In this document: one piece after another, positions 1,928-29,318 of the stretch
Position numbering within the stretch: position 1 is the first letter of the stretch
How the letters are laid out: each line of letters opens with the position of its first letter
Source of the DNA: Nanopusillaceae archaeon
GTDB taxonomy: Archaea; Nanobdellota; Nanobdellia; Nanobdellales; Nanobdellaceae
DNA length: 32,000 nt
Reading direction: 5' to 3'
Assembly: GCA_049974095.1 (NCBI GenBank)
Contig: JBMFJD010000010.1
Location: 1,590-33,589 of the forward strand
Program-made: the position numbers and the translations under genes
Notes under the pieces: model-generated
Seen by the model: only the letters and a program-made list of their open reading frames with translations
What the model was told of the DNA's origin: nothing
Database searches by the model: none

Positions 1928-2848
1928 TTAATTTAAATTTAATTGAATTTTTATTTCACAGGCTCTACATATATCTCTTGTAGTAGGATAACCACAAATT
2001 TTACATTTCTTTAATTTTACCTTATTTTTCATTTTATATTCTTCCTTTGCCTTTAATAAAATTGGTAAGAAATTATTAATAAAATTCTCATGGAATTTAT
2101 TATATTTATTTTCTACTTCATATAATTTTGCCCTAACAATATCCCTAAATTGTCCTCTAATAAATGGACATTCTCCATATGGTGGTTCCAAATTATTTAT
2201 AACAGAATATAATAAATTTTCCTTTTCCCTATTAAAATAAAATGGTTTTATTCTAGGAATAAAATCTTCCTCAATTATTCCAACAAAAGGTCCTTCTTTT
2301 AATAAATCTTTTAAATTTCCTTCAAAGAAATTCATTAAAATTGTTTGTACTTCATCATTTATATTATGTGCAGTTGCAAATTTATCTAAATTTAAATCCT
2401 TTGCAGCTTTCCACATTAACCATCTTCTCCATACTCCACAAATTGTACATGCTCTATATTTTTTTGTTATTTTTACAGCATTATCTAATCTTATTTTAAA
2501 ATAATCAGTAAATTTATATATTTTAATATTCCAATTATATTTTTGAGCTAATTCTAATAATTTTTTTGTATCTTTATCTCTATATCCTGCAATTCCTTCA
2601 TCAATATGTATTCCATATACTTCTATATTAAAATAATCCTTGTATTTATTTAGAAAATATAACAATGCATTTGAATCTTTTCCTCCAGATACTCCAACTC
2701 CAATTCTTTCTCCAGGTTTAATTAATTTAAATCTTTCAATTGTATTAATTGCTTTTTCTTCAAAATATTTTATAAAATGTTCTTTACAATAATAATTTCC
2801 ATCACTATCCTTATATATTGCATTATTATTACAAAAAGAGCATTTCAT
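1928..2848 (-). CDS. TtuA/Ncs6-type PP-loop tRNA 2-thiolation enzyme
   Basis: 306 aa. N-terminal CxxC...CxxH finger (CSFC...CKEH), PP-loop SGGKDS, central CTIC plus GECPF cysteines (Fe-S ligands), and a C-terminal CKIC...CRAC finger. Confidence 0.75.
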   Translation of the reverse strand: MKCSFCNNNAIYKDSDGNYYCKEHFIKYFEEKAINTIERFKLIKPGERIGVGVSGGKDSNALLYFLNKYKDYFNIEVYGIHIDEGIAGYRDKDTKKLLELAQKYNWNIKIYKFTDYFKIRLDNAVKITKKYRACTICGVWRRWLMWKAAKDLNLDKFATAHNINDEVQTILMNFFEGNLKDLLKEGPFVGIIEEDFIPRIKPFYFNREKENLLYSVINNLEPPYGECPFIRGQFRDIVRAKLYEVENKYNKFHENFINNFLPILLKAKEEYKMKNKVKLKKCKICGYPTTRDICRACEIKIQLNLN

Positions 2849-3861
2849 TTATTTATTTCTCTTATAAAGTAATCTCTTATTGCAGGTACAACATCATAAA
2901 TAAATTTACTCTTAACCTTTGTTCTTACTAATAGTTTTGCTTCAACCATTCTTTTTAATATATTAGACAATGAATGTATTGTTGTATCAGAATATCTCTC
3001 TTTAAATAACTTTAATAATTCATTAACTCCTTTTGGTCCATATTTTGTTAATAATTCAATAATGTATCTTTGTTTTTCAGTTAATTTTAATATATCTGTA
3101 GGTGGTTTTTTATTTTCATATATTTTTTCAATTATTTCTCTATCAATTATATTTTTTCTTTCTCTATATGCAATTAATAATGATTCATATGAATATTTTA
3201 ATATTTCTCTTGGTAATCCTCCAGATAAATGATATATTTCTTCAATTGCATCATCTGTAAATAAACCAGGATTTCCTGCTAATTCTAATCTTTTCTTAAT
3301 TAATAATTTTCCACTTTCAGGATCTAAAGATTTTAAATATATTTTTGTTAGAATTCTTTCATATAATGTTCTATGTTCTTTTATTAATTTTTCTTCAAAT
3401 TCTGGTAATCCTGCTAAAATAAATGTACATTTTGTTTGATCAGATAATATTTTTATCCATTCAATTATATCATTATTAAAAAATGTTGCTTCATCAATAA
3501 AAATTATCATTTCTTTTTTATTTAGATAATCTAATAGATTAAATTGTTTAAATTTATATATTATTTTTTCAAAAAAAGAAAATCCAGCCTTTATATATTT
3601 TTCTAATTCTTCTTTTTCATTAAAAGGTCTATAAATATATATTTTATTCTTTTTATCTAAATTATTAAATGTCCATAATAATAATGTAGTTTTTCCAGCA
3701 CCTGTAGGGCCAGAAACTAATATTATCTTTTCTTTATTATTTATTGCATTAATTAATTTTTCTCTTTCTAAATTATATCCTACAAATGTTTCTAAAATTA
3801 CTTCTAATTTAAATGGGTTATTTTTTAGATTAAAGAATTTTAACATTTCTTCATTATTCAT
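2845..3861 (-). CDS. ExeA/AAA_22-like AAA ATPase with C-terminal winged-helix domain
   Basis: 338 aa. N-terminal FFNLKNNPF (ExeA-like FGL..PF motif), Walker A GPTGAGKT, Walker B IIFIDEA, and a C-terminal helix-turn-helix-like region. A 4-nt overlap couples it to the downstream thiolase gene. Confidence 0.6.
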   Translation of the reverse strand: MNNEEMLKFFNLKNNPFKLEVILETFVGYNLEREKLINAINNKEKIILVSGPTGAGKTTLLLWTFNNLDKKNKIYIYRPFNEKEELEKYIKAGFSFFEKIIYKFKQFNLLDYLNKKEMIIFIDEATFFNNDIIEWIKILSDQTKCTFILAGLPEFEEKLIKEHRTLYERILTKIYLKSLDPESGKLLIKKRLELAGNPGLFTDDAIEEIYHLSGGLPREILKYSYESLLIAYRERKNIIDREIIEKIYENKKPPTDILKLTEKQRYIIELLTKYGPKGVNELLKLFKERYSDTTIHSLSNILKRMVEAKLLVRTKVKSKFIYDVVPAIRDYFIREINK

Positions 3862-4180
3862 CTTAATTTAATCATTGTAAAAAATATTATTAAATATTTT
3901 TAAATAAAAAAATTCTCTTAATATAAATAAATAAAACAATTTAAAATTTAAATGGATATTGCTATTATATATAAAAAGACATATAAAGATTTTTTATGAA
4001 AAGAAAAGATAAATTAAAAGATATTAAATGAAGAAAAGAAAAATTATGTGAAATGTTGAAATGATATAAAGGTTTTTATATAGATTTTTAATTAAGATAT
4101 AAATAAAATATACTCAAACTAATAGCTAAATAGTTTAAGATAAATTAATAAAATTTCTTAGAATAAAATATTTTATAAAT

Positions 4181-4253
4181 AGCCCCGTCGTCTAGTGGTC
4201 TAGGATGCAGGGTTTTGGTCCCTGTGACCGGGGTTCGAATCCCCGCGGGGCTA
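4181..4253 (+). tRNA. tRNA-Gln (anticodon UUG), no intron, CCA not encoded
   Basis: Hand-folded cloverleaf. Acceptor AGCCCCG/CGGGGCT, anticodon stem CAGGG/CCCTG, loop TTTTGGT, T-arm CGGGG-TTCGAAT-CCCCG, discriminator A. It forms a GC-rich island in an AT-rich spacer. Confidence 0.9.
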
Positions 4254-4285
4254 GTTTTATAAATAATCAAAATTTATATTTTGAT

Positions 4286-4906
4286 ATGATCGAATCATTA
4301 TCTTTAATTTTATCTCAAATATTCTCTTATGATTCATTAAAATTACTAGTAATTTTTGTTGTGATAATTATTATAGGATACTTTATTGGTAAATTGGTGG
4401 CATTTATATTAAAAATAATTCTAAATAAAATTTTGGGATTAGATAATTGGTTACATGAAAAAGGAGTATTACAAAATATCTCTCTTACACAAATTTTAAT
4501 CAATATAATTAAATTCTTTATATATTTTTACTTTTTTGGTTATGCATTTTATATAATTCCATATTTATCATTCATAGGAAAAATAATATTCCAGATTTTG
4601 AATTATCTATTATTAATAATTTTGTTAATGATTTTATCATTTGCAATGATGGAAATATTAATAAAATCTTCATTAGAACCTTTATTAGATAATTTAAAAT
4701 ATAAAGAATATTTATTAGCATTTATTAAATTTATTGTTTTGTTCTTTGTATTAATTTTAATACTAAGTTATCTTAATTTATTATCTCCAGTACTATTATA
4801 TCTTTTTGTTATATTATTTGTAGGAATTGTAATATCAATATCAATAGCAGTTGGGGTAGCATTAAGTGAAATATTAAAGAAGAAATTTAGAGAAATATTC
4901 AAATGA
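4286..4906 (+). CDS. multi-pass membrane protein, unknown function
   Basis: The track ORF 4205-4906 starts inside the tRNA. The first plausible start is ATG 4286 (MIESLSL...). The protein is highly hydrophobic with repeated long helices followed by basic stretches. Confidence 0.55.
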   Translation: MIESLSLILSQIFSYDSLKLLVIFVVIIIIGYFIGKLVAFILKIILNKILGLDNWLHEKGVLQNISLTQILINIIKFFIYFYFFGYAFYIIPYLSFIGKIIFQILNYLLLIILLMILSFAMMEILIKSSLEPLLDNLKYKEYLLAFIKFIVLFFVLILILSYLNLLSPVLLYLFVILFVGIVISISIAVGVALSEILKKKFREIFK

Positions 4907-9966: not shown

Positions 9967-10289
9967 TGGATGAGATAGAGGAATATGAAAAAATATTAGA
10001 TGAGTTAGAGAAAAAGATAAAAAATTTAAAAGAAGAATTAGAAAAAAATAAAAGATTAAATTTAGAATTAAAAGATAAGTATTTTAAATTAAAAATGCTT
10101 TTGGAAGATAAAAAGAAAGATTATAAAGAAATATTAGAAGAATTAAAGTACTTACTTCTTAATATAGATCAAAAACTGAATGATATTGAGGATATTAAAA
10201 AAAGAGTTTATAACCTAGAACTTAGGGTAGATTTGTTATCAAAAAATATAGAAGAGATAAAGAAAGATATGATAAAAGAAAAGATATAA
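9966..10289 (+). CDS. small coiled-coil protein, unknown function
   Basis: 107 aa, K/E/L-rich with a heptad-like pattern throughout. Its ATG overlaps the polB stop (TAATG). Confidence 0.5.
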   Translation: MDEIEEYEKILDELEKKIKNLKEELEKNKRLNLELKDKYFKLKMLLEDKKKDYKEILEELKYLLLNIDQKLNDIEDIKKRVYNLELRVDLLSKNIEEIKKDMIKEKI

Positions 10290-10321
10290 AATTAATAAAG
10301 ATATAGGTTGATAGTTTATAT

Positions 10322-11473
10322 ATGGATATAAAAGAAAATTTTAATATAATAGAGGAGTTCTATACCTATGTAAAAAAGTTTAATGATAAGCTAATAGAAC
10401 TAAATAAGGCATTAAATAAATATGTAGAAAAAACAGAATTTTATGATCAATTAGATGGATTAAGAGAAGAATTAGAAGAAGTTAAAAAATCATTAGATAA
10501 TTATAAATCATATTTAAATGAAGATGTATTAGAAAAAATAAGATATATACAAGATATCAAATTAAAAGTAGATGTATTAGAAAATAATCAGAAAAATTTT
10601 GTTGATTATTCATATTTAGTAGATATAAAATCTAAATTAAATAAATTGGAAGGAGAAATAAATGATTTATTAACAAAAGTATCAAATTCTGAAGAAAAAA
10701 TTAAAGAATTCGAAGAAGAAAAAGAAAAAATATCACAAATAGATAATAAATTAGAAGAAATAAATAATAATTATGTAAATAAAGAAGAATTTGAAAAAAT
10801 AAAACAAGAAATAAATAAGGTTACTGAAGCTGTTTCAAAAACATTAGAAAAAATATCCTCAGATTTAATACAATATAATAAATTGTTAGAAGATGTATCA
10901 GAAATAAAAGAAAAGGAACTATTTCAAATAAACAATAAAATAGAAGAATTAGAAGAAAAATATAAGAAAATAGATAAAGATTTTGATAAAAAAATTGGAG
11001 AAATGAGTTATTTATTAGAAATAAAAGAAGAAGATATAAAAAATATTAAAAATATAAAGATAGCAGAAGAATTGTATAATAAATATGTTAATTTTGAAAA
11101 TAGATTAAATGGTATGTATACATTATTTGAAGATCTTCAAAATATTGTAAATGATATAAAAAATAAAACACAAGATATAGAAAAGGTAAAAGAATTTGAA
11201 AATAAAATGAATGAATTAGAAAGTAAAATGGGAAATCTTAGAAATGAGCTAAATGATTTGAAATATGAAATATTGGATTCAAAAGATATTGTAGAAACAG
11301 TATTAGCAGATTATGAAAAAATGGAAAATAGAATAAAAAGAATAGAAAATGTTTTACAATTAACGAACTTTGATTATATTGTTGGAGAAGTTGAAAAGAT
11401 TAAAGAATTAGAGAATGATATAGAGAATATAAAAAGGGAATTATATGAAAGAAGAATAAGTACTAGATCTTAA
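10322..11473 (+). CDS. long coiled-coil protein, unknown function
   Basis: 383 aa, almost entirely K/E/N/I/L heptad-like sequence with recurring ..K(L/I/M)(N/E)EL(E).. units. No P-loop or other enzymatic motif. Confidence 0.55.
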   Translation: MDIKENFNIIEEFYTYVKKFNDKLIELNKALNKYVEKTEFYDQLDGLREELEEVKKSLDNYKSYLNEDVLEKIRYIQDIKLKVDVLENNQKNFVDYSYLVDIKSKLNKLEGEINDLLTKVSNSEEKIKEFEEEKEKISQIDNKLEEINNNYVNKEEFEKIKQEINKVTEAVSKTLEKISSDLIQYNKLLEDVSEIKEKELFQINNKIEELEEKYKKIDKDFDKKIGEMSYLLEIKEEDIKNIKNIKIAEELYNKYVNFENRLNGMYTLFEDLQNIVNDIKNKTQDIEKVKEFENKMNELESKMGNLRNELNDLKYEILDSKDIVETVLADYEKMENRIKRIENVLQLTNFDYIVGEVEKIKELENDIENIKRELYERRISTRS

Positions 11474-11826
11474 TGAATATTCTTTAATTTTTCAATAATA
11501 TTGATCATTTTATCAATAATATTATATAATTTTAATATTTTTTCTTTTGGTATATCTTTTATATTTTCTTCATTTAATATATCTATAAAATCTAATAATT
11601 GATTTTGTTTTATAATATATAATTCATCAAAGTATCCTTCTTCTTCTAATCTATATAACATAGAAATTAATTTTACAGCATCATTTGAATTACTCAAATC
11701 AACTTCTTTTTTTAATATAACATTTACTTTTCCCTTACTTTTTTCTCTAGCTTCTTTTATTTTTTTATCCAATTCTAATATTTTTCTTCTCTTGCTATAT
11801 TCTGATGAAGGAATTATTAATGGCAT
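11470..11826 (-). CDS. hypothetical protein
   Basis: 118-aa ORF starting 31 nt downstream of the C/D sRNA on the same strand. A TATA-like TTTTTAAATT (minus strand) lies about 25 nt upstream of its ATG. No family recognised. Confidence 0.45.
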   Translation of the reverse strand: MPLIIPSSEYSKRRKILELDKKIKEAREKSKGKVNVILKKEVDLSNSNDAVKLISMLYRLEEEGYFDELYIIKQNQLLDFIDILNEENIKDIPKEKILKLYNIIDKMINIIEKLKNIH

Positions 11827-11854
11827 AATAAAATATGATTTTTAGAAATTTAAA

Positions 11855-11908
11855 AATCAGCAGCTACTCCAATCATCATTTTTCAGGGGGTGTCCACATC
11901 ATCATAAT
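11855..11908 (-). ncRNA. C/D box sRNA (2'-O-methylation guide)
   Basis: Minus strand reads cuauu-AUGAUGA(C)-UGUGGACACCCC-CUGA(D')-AAA-AUGAUGA(C')-UUGGAGUAGCUG-CUGA(D)-uuuuu. It has two 12-nt guides and a 3-nt D'-C' spacer. The C box is at 11905-11899 and the D box at 11860-11857. It forms a GC-richer island in the spacer. Confidence 0.85.
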
Positions 11909-21348: not shown

Positions 21349-23112
21349 ATGGAATTTGTTCCATTATATATTAAAAATTTATGCTTCAATTGTGGAGGAA
21401 CCATATCATCTTATAGATTATCTAATGGTTTACCATGTAATGATGATTTAGATGATAATGATATAAAAGAATTATTAAATATAAAGGATGAAAATGAATT
21501 TATAGAAAAATTATATGAAAAATTAAAACAAAAAGGAAAATTAAAGAACTTTGATGAAATATATAAATTATATAAAGAAACAAAAGAATTTAAAGAATTT
21601 TTTAATAAATTAATTAAAAATGATCCTTGGAGAATACAATTAATGTGGTTTAAAAGATTGTATAAAAATATAAGTTTCTCTATGATCACTCCAACAGGAA
21701 TTGGAAAATCTACATTTATTATAGTTTCTTCAATATATTTTGCTTATAAGTATAAAAAGAAGATAATAATTGTTTTGCCTACAAGGTTATTGGTAAAACA
21801 AGTATTGGATACATTTAACAAATTTTTATCTGAATTACAAATTAATTTAGAAATAGCATATTATTATGGAAAAGAAAAGAAGGGACAAAAAGAAAAAATA
21901 AAAGAAGGAAATTATAATATTTTGGTTATATCTAATCAATTTTTATCAAAAAATTTTGAATTATTAAAAGATAAAAAATTTGATATAGCGTTTATTGATG
22001 ATGTAGATTCATTTTTCAAAGGATCAAAGAATATAGAAAGAATATTTATTTTGTTAGGATATACTCAGGAAGAAATAGATATTGCTAAAAAGATAATTGA
22101 TTTAAAATTATCTGGAAAATTAAATTTTAATAGCGAATTGTATAAAAAATTTTTAGAAATTAAAAATAAAAAGGCAGGAATTATTATATTATCTTCTGCT
22201 ACTGGAAGTTTAAGGGGTAAAAGAGTATTATTATATAGAGAATTGGCAAACTTTACTGCAGGAACTGGTACTTCTAAAATAAGAAATGTTATAGATGTAT
22301 TTTATTATCCTAAAGATGATATAAAGAAAGAAGTATTAAAAATTGTAAATTTGCTAAAAGATGGGATATTAATTTTTGTTCCAAAAGATAAAGGTATAGA
22401 ATTTGCAAAAGAATTATACGAATATTTAAAGAATAATAATGTAAATGCTGAATATGTATCAGCAGAAGTTAAAAATATCGATGAGATAATAAATAATTTT
22501 AAAGAAGGAAAGGTAAATGTATTAATTGGAATTTCAGATCCATATGGAATATTGGTTAGGGGTATAGATATACCAGAAAGGATTAAATATGCAATATTTG
22601 TTGGAATTCCTAAGATAAGGATTAATATCTCTAAATTAGAAAAAAATATAAATAATCTTTTAATATTAGCATCTTTAATAGCACCAGTATTACCAGAACT
22701 TGAAAAAATAGAATTATCAAGAAAAGTTGAAATAACTAGGAGAAATTTAAAAAGATTATCTTCAGAATCTTTAAAATTAATTAATGAATATTTATCTGGA
22801 AATAATGTAAATCTAAAAGGATTTAACAAGAAAGTTGCAGATGATTTATTATTATTATATAATAGAGTAAATGAGTATTTAAAAAATAAAGAAATAATTG
22901 AAAAAATAAAGGAAAATCCTGAGGTGTCTACAGAAATAATAAATAATGATATTTATGTTAAAATTGCAGATCTAAAATCATATATTCAAGCATCTGGAAG
23001 AACTTCTAGATTATATGCTGGAGGGATTACAAAAGGTCTTTCTATTATTTTAGTTGATGATGAAAAACTGTTAAAATCCTTAGATTTAAAGTTAAGATAT
23101 TATCTGTTGTAG
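21349..23112 (+). CDS. rgy: reverse gyrase, helicase-like N-terminal half only (split gene)
   Basis: 587 aa. N-terminal finger CFNCGG...LPC, FKEFFNKL...WRIQLMWFKRL, Walker A TPTGIGKST, DDVD box, SATG, VRGIDIPERIKYAIFVGIPK and YIQASGRTSRLYAGGITKG. The ORF stops where the TOPRIM/topoisomerase IA module would normally begin. Confidence 0.88.
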   Translation: MEFVPLYIKNLCFNCGGTISSYRLSNGLPCNDDLDDNDIKELLNIKDENEFIEKLYEKLKQKGKLKNFDEIYKLYKETKEFKEFFNKLIKNDPWRIQLMWFKRLYKNISFSMITPTGIGKSTFIIVSSIYFAYKYKKKIIIVLPTRLLVKQVLDTFNKFLSELQINLEIAYYYGKEKKGQKEKIKEGNYNILVISNQFLSKNFELLKDKKFDIAFIDDVDSFFKGSKNIERIFILLGYTQEEIDIAKKIIDLKLSGKLNFNSELYKKFLEIKNKKAGIIILSSATGSLRGKRVLLYRELANFTAGTGTSKIRNVIDVFYYPKDDIKKEVLKIVNLLKDGILIFVPKDKGIEFAKELYEYLKNNNVNAEYVSAEVKNIDEIINNFKEGKVNVLIGISDPYGILVRGIDIPERIKYAIFVGIPKIRINISKLEKNINNLLILASLIAPVLPELEKIELSRKVEITRRNLKRLSSESLKLINEYLSGNNVNLKGFNKKVADDLLLLYNRVNEYLKNKEIIEKIKENPEVSTEIINNDIYVKIADLKSYIQASGRTSRLYAGGITKGLSIILVDDEKLLKSLDLKLRYYLL

Positions 23113-23115
23113 TAA

Positions 23116-23171
23116 CATTAATTTAACAAAATATTAACTTATATATTTAACAATTTAACATATTTTAACAT
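23116..23171 (+). repeat. 56-bp direct repeat block, copy 1 (five TTAAC cores)
   Basis: The first 26 nt (cattaatttaacaaaatattaactta) are identical to 23222-23247. Beyond that, the cores stay aligned while the spacers differ. Confidence 0.85.
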
Positions 23172-23221
23172 TTAATTAATTTTTATTTTTAACATATTAA
23201 CGTCGCATAATCTTTATTTTT

Positions 23222-23277
23222 CATTAATTTAACAAAATATTAACTTACTAATTTAACTCTTTAACACTACTTAACAT
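23222..23277 (+). repeat. 56-bp direct repeat block, copy 2 (five TTAAC cores)
   Basis: Offset of 106 bp from copy 1, with the same internal core spacing of 11/13/8/10. Confidence 0.85.
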
Positions 23278-23340
23278 ATGTTTAACGAATTTTTAACATG
23301 TATAAAATAAATTCTTAAATACTCTCTAGAATTCATAATT

Positions 23341-25653
23341 ATGGATCTAAAAAAAGATTATGATAAATTATTATGTAAAATAATAAAAAATAATCATAGA
23401 GGAATAATAGTAATATCTGGAAGTAATTATTTTGATATAATTTCAGATTTAATTAATAGGTATTATGAAATAATAAAGAATTTTAGACAAGACATAAATA
23501 TATTATATGTTACAGAGGATTATTATGGAGACTTTTTATATAGATTTGAAAAATTGGAAGAAAAGTTAAAAGATTTTAATATAACAAAAATAAAATATAA
23601 AGATTCTAGAAAAATATTAGGAAAGACATTTAATATAATAATTTTGGATATGTATAAATCTTTAACGCCAGATCATTTAGGAAGGATAATAGAAACATTA
23701 TCTGGTTCAGGAATAGCATTTTTCTTAATAAAAGATTTTGAAAATTTTGAAAATATTACAACAACATTTCATGAGCATTTATTAACTCCTCCATATAAAA
23801 TAGAAGATGTAAGAAAATATTTTGAATATAGATTTAAGCAAAAATTATTGCAATACGATAATATAATAATATATGATACAGAAAAAGGATTAATAAAGGG
23901 AATAAATGAAGAATGCAATGTAGAGGAAGCAGTTCCACCAGAAAGGAAAAAGTTAATATTAAATGAAAAGAAAATTTTTTCAGATAGAATATATAAATTA
24001 TGTTTAACACAAGATCAAGCAAATGTATTAAGTATGTTAGAAGATTTGTTAAATAATGAAAAATCAATATTTTTAATAATTGCTGATAGAGGAAGAGGAA
24101 AAAGTGCATCTTTGGGATTAGCAATTGCAGGATTAGTAGAAATATTATTGGAAAAAAATAAAATATATGATATTGGGATAACTGCTCCAGAATTTGAAAA
24201 TGTGGAAACATTATTTGAATTTTTAAAAATAGGATTAAATGGAAATAATATAGAATATAAGGAGATTAAAAACAAGAAGATAATCATAAAAAATAAAATA
24301 TATATAGAATATAGAAAACCTTCAGATATATTAAGAAAAAAGTATGATATTTTATTTGTAGATGAAGCTGCAGGTATTGGTATATTATTTTTATATCAAT
24401 TTGTAAATAAATATAGAAAAGTAGTATTTTCTTCGACAATCCATGGATATGAAGGAGCTGGAAGATCTTTCTCTGTAAGATTTCTAAAATATTTGAATAG
24501 TCTAATTGGTATAAAGATATATAAATATAATATGATTGAACCTATTAGATATGGAGAAGGAGATCCAATAGAAAAATGGCTATATGATACATTATTATTA
24601 GATTCGGAGCCTGATGAGATCAATGAGGAAGATAAAGAATTGATTAAAAATAAAGAAACAAGATTTTATAAAATACCATTAAAAGATTGGTTTTATAATG
24701 ATGATCCTAAATTAAAGAATTTTGTAGGAATTTATATTTTAGCTCATTATCAAAATAAACCAAATGATATTGCAATGCTTGCAGATGCGCCACATCATGA
24801 TGCTTTTATATTAGAATTAAAAAATGGAAAAATTGTTGATGGAATACAAGTTGCATATGAAGGAGGGATTGATGATGAAACAATAGAAAGAATGTTAATG
24901 GATTATAAACCAAAGGGAAATATAATACCAGATATAATTGTAAAACATTATAGATTAAAAGAATTTGCAAAATTAAAGGGATTGAGAGTTATAAGAATTG
25001 CAACAACACCAGAAATACAAGGTATGGGATTAGGATCTATTTCATTACAAGAATTAACTGAATGGGGAAAGAAGAATAATTATGATTGGTTAGGATCTAG
25101 TTTTGGTGTTACACATGAATTATTAAATTTCTGGCAAAAGAATGGATTTGTTTTAGTTCATTTATCTCCTGAAAAAAATAAGGTATCCGGGGAATATTCA
25201 GGAATAGTATTAAAACCTTTAAATGAAGAAACAGAAAAAATTGTTAAAAAATTAAATTATGAATTTAGATGGAGATTAATAAATCAAATATCAGATGTAT
25301 ATTTTGATTTAGAACCAAAATTAATATTAAAAATGTTAGAAACTCCATATAAATTTAAACCACATTTTAAATTATTATTAACAGAAAATCAAATTGAAAG
25401 ATTAGAGGGATACTTAAAATCTCCAATGACATATGAAGCTGCTGCAGATGTTGTTAAATTATTATATCTATACTATTTAGTATATACTGATAAAGATAAA
25501 CCAAAGATTGAAGATGAAGAGATAATGGTTTCAAAATTTTTATTATCATGGAGCTTTAATAAATTATCAGAATATTTTAATTTAAAGAAATTTGAAGCAA
25601 GAAGAAAAATAAAGAAAAATGTAAAAATAATATATAAATGGTTATTTAAGTAA
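23341..25653 (+). CDS. tmcA: tRNA(Met) cytidine acetyltransferase TmcA (NAT10/Kre33 homolog)
   Basis: 770 aa. Helicase-type Walker A ADRGRGKSASLG, Walker B-like LFVDEAA, STIHGYEGAGR, and the GNAT acetyl-CoA motif RIATTPEIQGMGLGS. Confidence 0.85.
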   Translation: MDLKKDYDKLLCKIIKNNHRGIIVISGSNYFDIISDLINRYYEIIKNFRQDINILYVTEDYYGDFLYRFEKLEEKLKDFNITKIKYKDSRKILGKTFNIIILDMYKSLTPDHLGRIIETLSGSGIAFFLIKDFENFENITTTFHEHLLTPPYKIEDVRKYFEYRFKQKLLQYDNIIIYDTEKGLIKGINEECNVEEAVPPERKKLILNEKKIFSDRIYKLCLTQDQANVLSMLEDLLNNEKSIFLIIADRGRGKSASLGLAIAGLVEILLEKNKIYDIGITAPEFENVETLFEFLKIGLNGNNIEYKEIKNKKIIIKNKIYIEYRKPSDILRKKYDILFVDEAAGIGILFLYQFVNKYRKVVFSSTIHGYEGAGRSFSVRFLKYLNSLIGIKIYKYNMIEPIRYGEGDPIEKWLYDTLLLDSEPDEINEEDKELIKNKETRFYKIPLKDWFYNDDPKLKNFVGIYILAHYQNKPNDIAMLADAPHHDAFILELKNGKIVDGIQVAYEGGIDDETIERMLMDYKPKGNIIPDIIVKHYRLKEFAKLKGLRVIRIATTPEIQGMGLGSISLQELTEWGKKNNYDWLGSSFGVTHELLNFWQKNGFVLVHLSPEKNKVSGEYSGIVLKPLNEETEKIVKKLNYEFRWRLINQISDVYFDLEPKLILKMLETPYKFKPHFKLLLTENQIERLEGYLKSPMTYEAAADVVKLLYLYYLVYTDKDKPKIEDEEIMVSKFLLSWSFNKLSEYFNLKKFEARRKIKKNVKIIYKWLFK

Positions 25654-28669: not shown

Positions 28670-28696
28670 TTAGTTAACGATATTGATTAACAAATC

Positions 28697-28706: not shown

Positions 28707-28727
28707 ACGAGATTGTTTATTTTTAAC

Positions 28728-29318
28728 ATGAAGGGCCAAGGTACAGGTTTTTCATCGATGGTATTATTTATAGCAGCAGCATTGACAGCAGCAATAGCAG
28801 CCTTTGTAATTATTGGTGCAACAACAAGTGCACAAGGACATGCAGCAGCAGCAGCACAACAAACAGTACAAACATCAGGTACAACTGTAGAAATAGTTAG
28901 AGTAGAAGGAATAAATGTAAATACAACAACACAAGCAGTACAAGAATTCTTAGTATATACAAGGTTAGCACCAGGATCACAACCAATATTATTAAATCAA
29001 ACATCAGTAATATTATATGCACCAGCTGGAAGAGAAGTATTTGTATATGGAGGAGCTGTAGCAGATTCATCATTAGTAACCAGTTATACAGGATACTACT
29101 TTATTGATCAACAGGATTCTGTAGATAATTCAGGATTGTTATTCAATGGTGTATTAGGTCCAAATGATCTAGCAGCATTATTAGTATATGCAAATGTAAC
29201 ATTAGGAACATCACAAACATGGGAAATTTCAATTATACCACCAAATGGACAACCATATGATCTATCAGGAATAACACCGGCTGCAATGGTATATCCAACA
29301 GTAGTATTATACGGCTAA
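28728..29318 (+). CDS. flaB: archaellin (FlaB/ArlB-type) with class III signal peptide
   Basis: The track ORF begins at TTG 28713. ATG 28728 gives MKG/QGTGFSSMVLFIAAALTAAIAAFVIIG, followed by ...VEIVRVEG...FLVYTRLAPGSQPILLNQTSVIL, which is typical archaellin-domain sequence. It has no Cys. Confidence 0.7.
   Translation: MKGQGTGFSSMVLFIAAALTAAIAAFVIIGATTSAQGHAAAAAQQTVQTSGTTVEIVRVEGINVNTTTQAVQEFLVYTRLAPGSQPILLNQTSVILYAPAGREVFVYGGAVADSSLVTSYTGYYFIDQQDSVDNSGLLFNGVLGPNDLAALLVYANVTLGTSQTWEISIIPPNGQPYDLSGITPAAMVYPTVVLYG

Follow-up and report, generated by a model that had tools for sequence, protein, structure and literature searches.

We analysed a 32,000-nucleotide stretch of archaeal DNA (contig JBMFJD010000010.1; hereafter the window, with a G+C content of 23%), focusing on the intergenic spacer between rgyN and tmcA, which is densely packed with copies of the pentamer TTAAC. 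The TmcA protein encoded in the window shares 75% identity with its counterpart in Nanobdella aerobiophila and 78% with proteins from Nanopusillaceae metagenome-assembled genomes (MAGs), identifying the source as a Nanopusillaceae archaeon (Nanobdellota, DPANN). An initial annotation, made from the sequence alone, had taken the gene upstream of the spacer for a truncated reverse gyrase. This turned out to be wrong: N. aerobiophila and a Nanopusillaceae MAG encode the topoisomerase half (rgyC, a separate 634-aa Toprim/Topoisom_bac protein) elsewhere, so rgyN is the helicase half of a split enzyme. The reverse gyrase of Nanoarchaeum equitans is likewise split. Directly downstream of the pentamer array lies tmcA, while GINS51 and PolB are found 1.8 kb and 13 kb upstream of it, respectively. 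The order GINS51, rgyN, spacer, tmcA, sufS is kept in N. aerobiophila (L001/L012) and in the MAG contigs L003 and L004/L025, and it also occurs in the more distant L005 and L006. The coordinates of the main features at this locus are collected in Table 1.

Table 1. Features of the rgyN-tmcA locus, with positions given in the window.
Feature	Position	Strand	Basis and remarks
rgyN, helicase half of split reverse gyrase (zf_Rg, DEAD, Helicase_C)	21349..23112	+	Pfam
rgyN-tmcA intergenic spacer	23113..23340		Open reading frame (ORF) list; 228 bp, 15% G+C, + strand with 28 C vs 6 G
Phased array of 14 TTAAC cores, tTTAACa	23123..23297	+	Motif counts, periodicity
Unit 1, five cores, gaps 6-8-3-5	23123..23169	+	Exact template match
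Unit 2, degenerate (TTAAC, TTAAT, TTAAC, TTAAC, ATAAT)	23165..23211	+	Three-mismatch template match; repeat family D1
Unit 3, exact five-core unit within 23222-23277, the duplicate of 23116-23171 at 106-bp offset	23229..23275	+	
Tail, three cores 11 bp apart; last core (23293-23297) abuts the TATA-like element	23271..23297	+	
TATA-like element TATAAAAT	23301..23308	+	Sequence reading; ~36 bp before the tmcA ATG; inferred core promoter
Alternative TATA-like element TTAAATAC	23316-23323	+	Sequence reading
tmcA, RNA cytidine acetyltransferase, Nat10/TmcA family	23341..25653	+	Pfam, homologues

The spacer contains 14 TTAAC cores, all on the + strand (starting at 23123, 23134, 23147, 23155, 23165, 23189, 23197, 23229, 23240, 23253, 23261, 23271, 23282 and 23293) and separated by core-to-core spacings of 11, 13, 8, 10, 24, 8, 32, 11, 13, 8, 10, 11 and 11, exactly as the initial annotation had listed them. 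They span 176 bp, or about 17 helical turns, the rgyN stop codon lies 10 bp before the first core, and the reverse complement GTTAA is absent from the spacer. Elsewhere in the window, no 176-bp segment holds more than three same-strand TTAAC on either strand. Similarly, 20,000 mononucleotide shuffles of the 228-bp spacer gave a mean of 0.9 and a maximum of 6 copies. Compared with dinucleotide-preserving shuffles, TTAAC is not enriched across the window as a whole (87 observed vs 102 +/- 9 expected), so the cluster is local. The helical phasing that had been noticed also holds, although the original count of about 11 cores on one face was too low: at 10.5 bp per turn, 13/14 cores lie at most 0.2 turn from the same face, and 10.5 bp is also the best period of the array (vector strength R = 0.78).

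Within the array, a five-core template (gaps 6-8-3-5) has two exact matches, at 23123 and 23229, and a third one with three mismatches at 23165, indicating a series of ~42-bp units (core offsets 0, 11, 24, 32, 42) followed by an 11-11 tail. Two of these units belong to the 56-bp block that had been reported to recur 106 bp further on: blocks 23116-23171 and 23222-23277 match at 47/56 positions, their first 26 nt are identical and their five cores stay aligned, with 25/25 core positions identical as opposed to 6/15 non-core positions in the diverged part. The second copy is a recent duplicate. Beyond the pentamer, the extended consensus is tTTAACa (T at -1 in 49/74 cores and A at +5 in 48/74), and the bases that follow are unconstrained. 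In addition, two reverse cores (GTTAA at 23070 and 23091; 23070..23095, - strand) lie inside the last 45 nt of rgyN, at 21 and 32 bp from their neighbours and hence in helical phase with the array. The 3' end of rgyN is invariant at the nucleotide level in an alignment of four species, and these reverse cores may either be part of the array or reflect only codon constraint.

The initial annotation had suggested looking for similar arrays in related genomes. Indeed, seven related species or MAGs, namely N. aerobiophila, Nanobsidianus stetteri Nst1, three Nanopusillus MAGs and two other MAGs, carry TTAAC arrays of 7-12 cores between rgyN and tmcA, in spacers that measure 167-224 bp. Counting the window, the eight arrays hold 7-14 TTAAC and 0-3 GTTAA each and begin 0-10 bp past the rgyN stop codon, which is followed by a counterpart of Unit 1 in L009, L012, L019, L020, L021 and L025; the 11, 11 tail is also present in the Nanopusillus relatives. 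The 11-13-8 spacing, with or without a following 10, is kept in 7/8 arrays, and L003 holds the 21-bp sum by means of a degenerate TTAAT. When periods from 7 to 24 bp were scanned, the best one was 10.5-10.75 bp in 8/8 arrays (vector strength 0.65-0.95). Insertions and deletions preserve this phase, as illustrated by the 106-bp duplication in the window and by a core inserted in L021 at 11 bp from each neighbour.

In an alignment of the five Nanopusillus/Nanobsidianus-type spacers, core columns are 93.5% pairwise identical vs 67.1% for non-core columns, and 56/65 core columns are invariant as compared with 50/137 of the others; some of the conserved core positions read TTAAT rather than TTAAC. 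Selection on the cores, which had initially been read from the duplicated block, is thus evident across species, and purifying selection acts on the spacing as well. A near-identical strain with 26 differences in 8.3 kb has one single-nucleotide polymorphism in the spacer, outside the cores.

We scanned 185,579 species-representative genomes with the 37-nt four-core unit TTAAY-N6-TTAAC-N8-TTAAC-N3-TTAAC, which returned 24 stretches. Six of these belong to Nanopusillaceae (Nanobsidianus stetteri Nst1, N. aerobiophila, three Nanopusillus MAGs and KM4331-16), and by tblastn placement 6/6 sit in the rgyN-tmcA spacer. The other 18 are single matches in 17 bacteria and one Bathyarchaeia MAG, all of them unrelated, a number close to that expected by chance. 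The complete chromosome of N. aerobiophila (668,961 bp) contains exactly one match, again in the rgyN-tmcA spacer, where the array runs from 394,378 to 394,592 of AP019769.1; the four-core unit is therefore unique in this complete genome. A metagenome scan with TmcA yielded a single, irrelevant locus.

Outside this group, the spacer is kept in three more distant lineages with TmcA proteins at 60-64% identity (L005, L006 and L035). At 94-197 bp, these spacers contain 5-7 cores, compared with 0.5-1 expected (P 5e-5 to 3e-3), yet here the cores occur in both orientations. All three also have a single TAAC-N5-GTTA palindrome (P about 0.003-0.008 for each), which immediately follows a TATA-like box, ATTAAATATA or ATTAATATAT. 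The longer version TTAAC-N5-GTTAA is found in L005 and L035, and with one mismatch in L006, while Nanopusillus-type arrays also contain TTAAC-N5-GTTAAC; overall, xTAAC-N5-GTTAx is exact in L005, L009, L019-L021 and L035. The window has only one-mismatch versions, five in number and all of them 11-bp direct-repeat pairs. Since TTAA is its own reverse complement, TTAAC-N6-TTAAC is at the same time a one-mismatch version of the palindrome. In a relative at 50% identity, the gene before tmcA encodes a GTPase and is not rgyN; the spacer there is 29 bp long and contains zero cores.

L034 (DQUP01000054.1, 61% identity) has an array of a different type at another locus: in a convergent spacer of 238 bp, it comprises six ATGTTAA(C) repeats about 11 bp apart (3534-3600), the first of them 6 bp beyond the stop codon of a TRM methyltransferase gene. 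This array has zero Rfam matches, and the neighbouring ORFs are without a Pfam match. We considered whether the window and L034 arrays share a neighbour gene and rejected this, as the neighbours (160 aa and 166 aa) are not related to each other.

We see no sign that the spacer functions as RNA or as coding sequence. Stop codons in all frames leave no ORF. A structured RNA or known RNA family was likewise rejected: the predicted folds of the two strands are no better than those of shuffled sequence (z = +0.74 and +0.85), and Rfam returned no match for the spacer. It is also highly doubtful that the array acts at the RNA level, through UUAAC repeats in the rgyN 3' untranslated region or tmcA leader that would serve as sites for an RNA-binding protein or base-pair with the transcript of the second reverse-gyrase half. 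While the cores do lie on the same strand throughout the Nanobdella/Nanopusillus clade, and the C-rich, G-poor + strand is predicted to be unstructured and hence accessible, phasing at the DNA helical repeat would be meaningless for RNA, the cores flip strand in the distant clades and in L034, and there is neither a stable fold nor an Rfam match. Pairing between the two reverse-gyrase mRNAs in particular was rejected. The rgyC gene (10001-11905 in both L102 and L103) lies in an aS21 - EF1-beta - rgyC - TRAM string, where its start overlaps the upstream gene and the downstream gap is 31 nt; no TTAAC/GTTAA cluster was found near rgyC in 42 kb from two species, so a complementary partner array is absent.

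We consider it very improbable, too, that the spacer is simply intrinsically curved DNA or a neutral AT-rich minisatellite devoid of sequence-specific function. The 106-bp duplication does show that the array can grow by duplication, and the spacer is very AT-rich. However, neutral decay cannot explain a core identity of 93.5% vs 67%, a spacing kept across genera whose tmcA genes are 75-78% identical, or the retention of cores in clades at 60-64% identity. Static curvature, offered as one option in the initial annotation, was rejected because a wedge model predicts a straight fragment: the ratio of end-to-end distance to contour length is 0.963, compared with 0.32 for phased A-tract controls, 77% of the 190-bp stretches of the window are more curved, and the array contains no phased A-tracts. 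The wedge parameters follow Bolshoy et al. 1991 and the controls behaved as expected, but this result is indicative only. Similarly, we rejected TTAAC as a general promoter element of the transcription factor B recognition element (BRE) type, as upstream regions elsewhere in the window lack TTAAC except for the archaellin promoter; the slight window-wide depletion of the pentamer also counts against it. An intrinsic terminator was rejected in the absence of a terminator hairpin or a conserved T-tract.

Helical phasing, selection on both the pentamer and the distances, and the strand flips in distant lineages together point to cooperative recognition of double-stranded DNA by a protein, on one face; the mixed-orientation cores and the palindrome of the distant clades argue that this recognition takes place on DNA and not on RNA. 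The last core abuts a TATA-like element in 4/4 lineages whose sequences we inspected by eye, which puts the array in an upstream activating or gating position. Protein binding, the identity of the binder and the sign of its effect on tmcA are what we infer from these features, and we give about even chances to the resulting proposal, namely, that the spacer is a helically phased binding array for an oligomerizing, sequence-specific protein, ending at the BRE/TATA of tmcA. Each protomer or dimer half would read one tTTAACa core and, with cores recurring once per turn, bound proteins would be aligned on one face over ~17 turns. They would be organized in 42-bp units of four cores (offsets 0, 11, 24, 32) that run from the rgyN stop codon to the BRE position, just ahead of the TATA-like element of tmcA. 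Going by the positional rule known for archaeal winged-helix regulators, binding upstream of BRE/TATA might then favour the recruitment of TBP and TFB, resulting in activation, or gate the promoter in a chromatin-like manner, and the same complex could also stop read-through from rgyN. As for its origin, the ancestral spacer likely had a few TTAAC/GTTAA half-sites including a TTAAC-N5-GTTAA operator. In the Nanobdella/Nanopusillus/Nanobsidianus lineage these would have grown into an array running in one direction, to which the lineage of the window later added the 106-bp duplication.

Several points weigh against this proposal. Searches of the window ORFs against Pfam and NCBIfam did not find a DNA-binding regulator, the TATA and BRE assignments are weak at 23% G+C, and the uneven, conserved 11-13-8-10 spacing is unlike the uniform 10-11 bp of Cox- and OmpR-type arrays. 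Uniqueness in the genome covers only the strict four-core unit, and L034 has its differently spaced array at another locus. Moreover, phased TTAA steps would also favour sequence-dependent histone wrapping without a dedicated factor. In its full form, this last alternative holds that phased, flexible TTAA sites with their TA steps fix an archaeal histone multimer or nucleoid protein, which would shield tmcA from rgyN or adjust how accessible the promoter is. TA-containing tetramers phased at 10.5 bp over ~176 bp suit wrapping, static curvature would be unneeded, and a palindromic TTAA makes orientation partly irrelevant, in agreement with the mixed orientation in the distant clades. Nevertheless, we regard chromatin positioning as distinctly unlikely, given that the whole pentamer including its C is conserved with preferred flanks, that eight species share a one-way orientation and that the spacing is uneven yet conserved, all of which suggests base-specific reading by a defined complex. 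Wrapping also offers no clear reason for the once-per-genome occurrence.

The position of the array immediately past the rgyN stop codon raises the question of whether an oriented, protein-bound array might halt RNA polymerase as a terminator or insulator for rgyN, or serve as a polar replication-fork barrier. Sal-box/TTF-I and Reb1 arrays are analogous roadblocks in eukaryotes; we know of no archaeal precedent for a protein-roadblock array. The start at 0-10 bp past the stop codon in every species, the single orientation and the lack of a conserved oligo-T tract or hairpin terminator in the spacer would all fit, as would the second-type array of L034, which also starts 6 bp after a stop codon. 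Relative to the upstream gene, however, the L034 cores have the opposite orientation, and other co-directional gene pairs in the window show nothing similar. A roadblock would also need the same protein as a promoter-associated array and is compatible with it. Taken as a reading of its own, it seems to us quite improbable.

The initial annotation had further listed an origin or a partition element among its options. Put more specifically, the spacer might be a unique chromosomal maintenance site, either an iteron-type origin or a centromere-like partition site, possibly derived from a mobile element, with an initiator or partition protein that would polymerize on phased direct repeats. Several observations are consistent with this possibility: each genome has a single copy of the strict unit, direct repeats spaced by one helical turn resemble the iterons of plasmids and phages, GTTAAC repeats 11 bp apart are frequent among viral contigs (65 of them, one beside DnaA boxes), replication genes (GINS51 and PolB) lie upstream, and the duplex stability of the array is in the lowest 4% of the window. 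The array is not the window minimum, though, as several other regions are less stable. Neither the 32-kb window nor the corresponding 22-kb locus of N. aerobiophila yielded an Orc1/Cdc6, WhiP-like, Rep or ParA/ParB/ParR protein. In this phylum, Orc1/Cdc6 is reported to be near-universal and single-copy, and by convention the origin is located next to its gene (bioRxiv 10.64898/2026.05.13.725050). The cores are unlike origin recognition box (ORB) or mini-ORB sequences, lie on one strand without an ORB-like dyad or an inverted arrangement around an unwinding element, and the spacer is merely 94-228 bp long. The strand offset in GC skew at third codon positions (GC3) is about +0.065 to the left of the array and -0.06 to the right, a sign change in the direction that a terminus, not an origin, would show; with only six genes on the right, two of them on the minus strand, and a large variance, the sample is too small to count. 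An origin beside the AAA+ gene at 2845-3861 was also considered and rejected, since its AAA_22 protein matches no Orc1/Cdc6 model. Altogether, the support for origin and partition functions proved weak, and we view a maintenance site of this kind as distinctly unlikely. In a broader version, which also strikes us as unlikely, the spacer would be a nucleoprotein landmark of the Nanopusillaceae present once per chromosome, serving as an iteron-type origin, a centromere or a polar fork barrier and not as an ordinary gene-specific operator; its TTAAC repeats would be like those of phage iterons and be recognized by a protein family not so far known from archaea. We likewise consider it unlikely that the array is a temperature-sensitive nucleoprotein switch coupling the expression of reverse gyrase and the RNA acetyltransferase.

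How does a protein-binding array at the tmcA promoter compare with known systems? The closest architecture is that of the oligomerizing winged-helix proteins P2 Cox, 186 Apl and lambda Xis, which act as recombination-directionality factors and regulators and whose sites are mostly direct repeats covering at least 70 bp. P2 Cox boxes occur six or more times with their starts 10-11 bp apart, and DNA is wrapped by a filament of the protein (PMC3936717); the sites of Apl are direct repeats one turn apart (PMC7498355). In both cases, the position and direction of the boxes relative to the promoter decide between repression and activation (PMC3936717, PMC7498355). At least four to six direct-repeat boxes about one turn apart typify this architecture, and the spacer has 14 cores. 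The cox-box TTAAA(G/C)NC(A/C) even begins like tTTAACa, although only the TTAA part is shared and the consensus differs (PMC3936717). There are further differences, too: the 14 sites, the 11-13-8-10 pattern that is not uniform, the archaeal host and the housekeeping nature of the flanking genes. Pfam and NCBIfam searches of the window ORFs revealed no small Cox/Xis-like winged helix-turn-helix gene, integrase or att site. We thus do not assign the array to the Cox/Apl family, because its box consensus differs and a cognate gene is absent from the window.

Archaeal winged-helix operators offer a second comparison, as those of HSR1 (Archaeoglobus), Phr (Pyrococcus) and TrmBL1 (with its TGM motif TATCAC-N5-GTGATA) have AC-N5-GT cores. 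HSR1 binds CTAAC-N5-GTTAG downstream of BRE/TATA in Archaeoglobus heat-shock promoters (PMC2396416), whereas for TrmBL1 a site upstream of BRE/TATA leads to activation and one downstream to repression (PMC4706686). The TTAAC-N5-GTTAA sequence of the relatives resembles the HSR1 operator and follows a TATA-like box of putative function in L005, L006 and L035. Moreover, both genes flanking the array serve heat adaptation, which is reminiscent of the HSR1/Phr setting. In contrast to HSR1/Phr-type operators, which overlap the transcription start, the sites in the window are 14 direct repeats located upstream, not downstream, of the TATA-like element; the known regulons of these winged-helix proteins consist of genes for chaperones or sugar metabolism, and each promoter has one or two sites. 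We take the HSR1 resemblance and the heat-adaptation neighbours as a lead rather than a test.

Bacterial regulators of the OmpR/PhoB family bind head-to-tail to direct repeats 10-11 bp apart upstream of promoters. TTAAC-N6-TTAAC is also literally the CtrA box, TTAA-N7-TTAAC (PMC7200025). CtrA, however, is a bacterial response regulator of Alphaproteobacteria, and the sequence identity is probably coincidental.

Phased direct repeats with cooperative binding and a helical protein scaffold are likewise known from origin iterons and from plasmid centromeres such as R1 parC/ParR and pSK41. The array shares with iteron centromeres its phased repeats, its place beside a putative promoter (the plasmid sites sometimes flank or abut one), its one site per replicon and its change of copy number by duplication, yet it consists of 5-7 bp cores with free spacers as opposed to whole-unit repeats of 11-22 bp, and parM, parR, parA and rep genes were not detected nearby. 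Mini-ORB arrays at euryarchaeal Orc1/Cdc6 origins, for example that of Methanothermobacter, consist of G/C-containing repeats of ~13 bp beside orc1/cdc6 and flank an unwinding element. Here, the likeness is limited to many copies of a short repeat in one archaeal intergenic region, whereas neither the consensus nor the adjacency to orc1/cdc6 nor the flanking of an unwinding element was found.

As an observation in its own right, searching IMG/VR for GTTAAC-N5-GTTAAC-N5-GTTAA identified 65 viral contigs (L037-L101), by our estimate roughly ten times the chance level. Most of these have tandem 11-bp iterons, in L037 next to DnaA boxes, and no annotated phage relative was matched for one group of GTTAAC-iteron contigs. 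In L046, L087 and L099, TTAAC cores are conserved and spacers variable, as in the archaeal array.

Phased multi-site protein-binding arrays are well known in bacteria and phages. What is new here are the 7-14 sites, their conservation across genera and the fixed 11-13-8-10 geometry, as well as the setting in one of the most compact archaeal genomes, between reverse gyrase and an RNA acetyltransferase. In agreement with the initial annotation, which knew of no such element, no account of it turned up in our literature searches, which covered archaeal TTAAC repeats, the origins of N. aerobiophila and promoter motifs of Nanoarchaeota. The genomes of DPANN archaea, including Nanobdellota, are tiny, with very little intergenic DNA and almost no characterized regulation. 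For a spacer of 170-230 bp to be kept across genera with 7-14 phased sites in such compact genomes is a strong sign of an important DNA-protein assembly. The array thereby provides a defined bait for capturing the first sequence-specific regulator or chromosome-organizing protein in this group, and its conserved 11-13-8-10 geometry places a concrete structural constraint on the binding complex. N. aerobiophila, which carries the array and is cultivated, offers a practical experimental handle. Lying between two high-temperature genes, for reverse gyrase and the N4-acetylcytidine (ac4C) RNA acetyltransferase, the array could show how thermoadaptation is controlled in a minimal symbiont.

Two further loci are of interest with respect to the binder and its targets. 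Upstream of rgyC by 3 kb, L102 (6806-7639) and L103 (6691-7521) encode a TrmB-family winged-helix protein of ~277 aa, one of the few recognizable regulators in these loci. TrmB-family proteins read N5-spaced palindromes, which makes this protein a candidate TTAAC binder based on its family. In the window itself, GTTAAC and TTAAC lie 13 bp apart at 28673-28691, after tRNA-Glu and upstream of the archaellin gene (28713-29318), with the pair lying 5 nt upstream of TATATAAA. In relatives, the second position of this site reads TTAAC, TTAGC or CTAAC (consensus about TTGATTArC). The archaellin site could represent a further target of the same factor, or else belong separately to an archaellum regulator.

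Finally, an unusually long (318-bp), very AT-rich spacer at 3862-4179, between the gene for the divergent AAA_22 ATPase and tRNA-Gln, is among the least stable duplex regions of the window and contains a tandem repeat with a 27-bp period at 3878-3953. The automatically called ORF 4205-4906 overlaps tRNA-Gln (4180-4254) by 50 nt, and its true start is probably further downstream. Both tRNA genes of the window have an AT-rich, TATA-like sequence ~25-30 bp upstream of +1.

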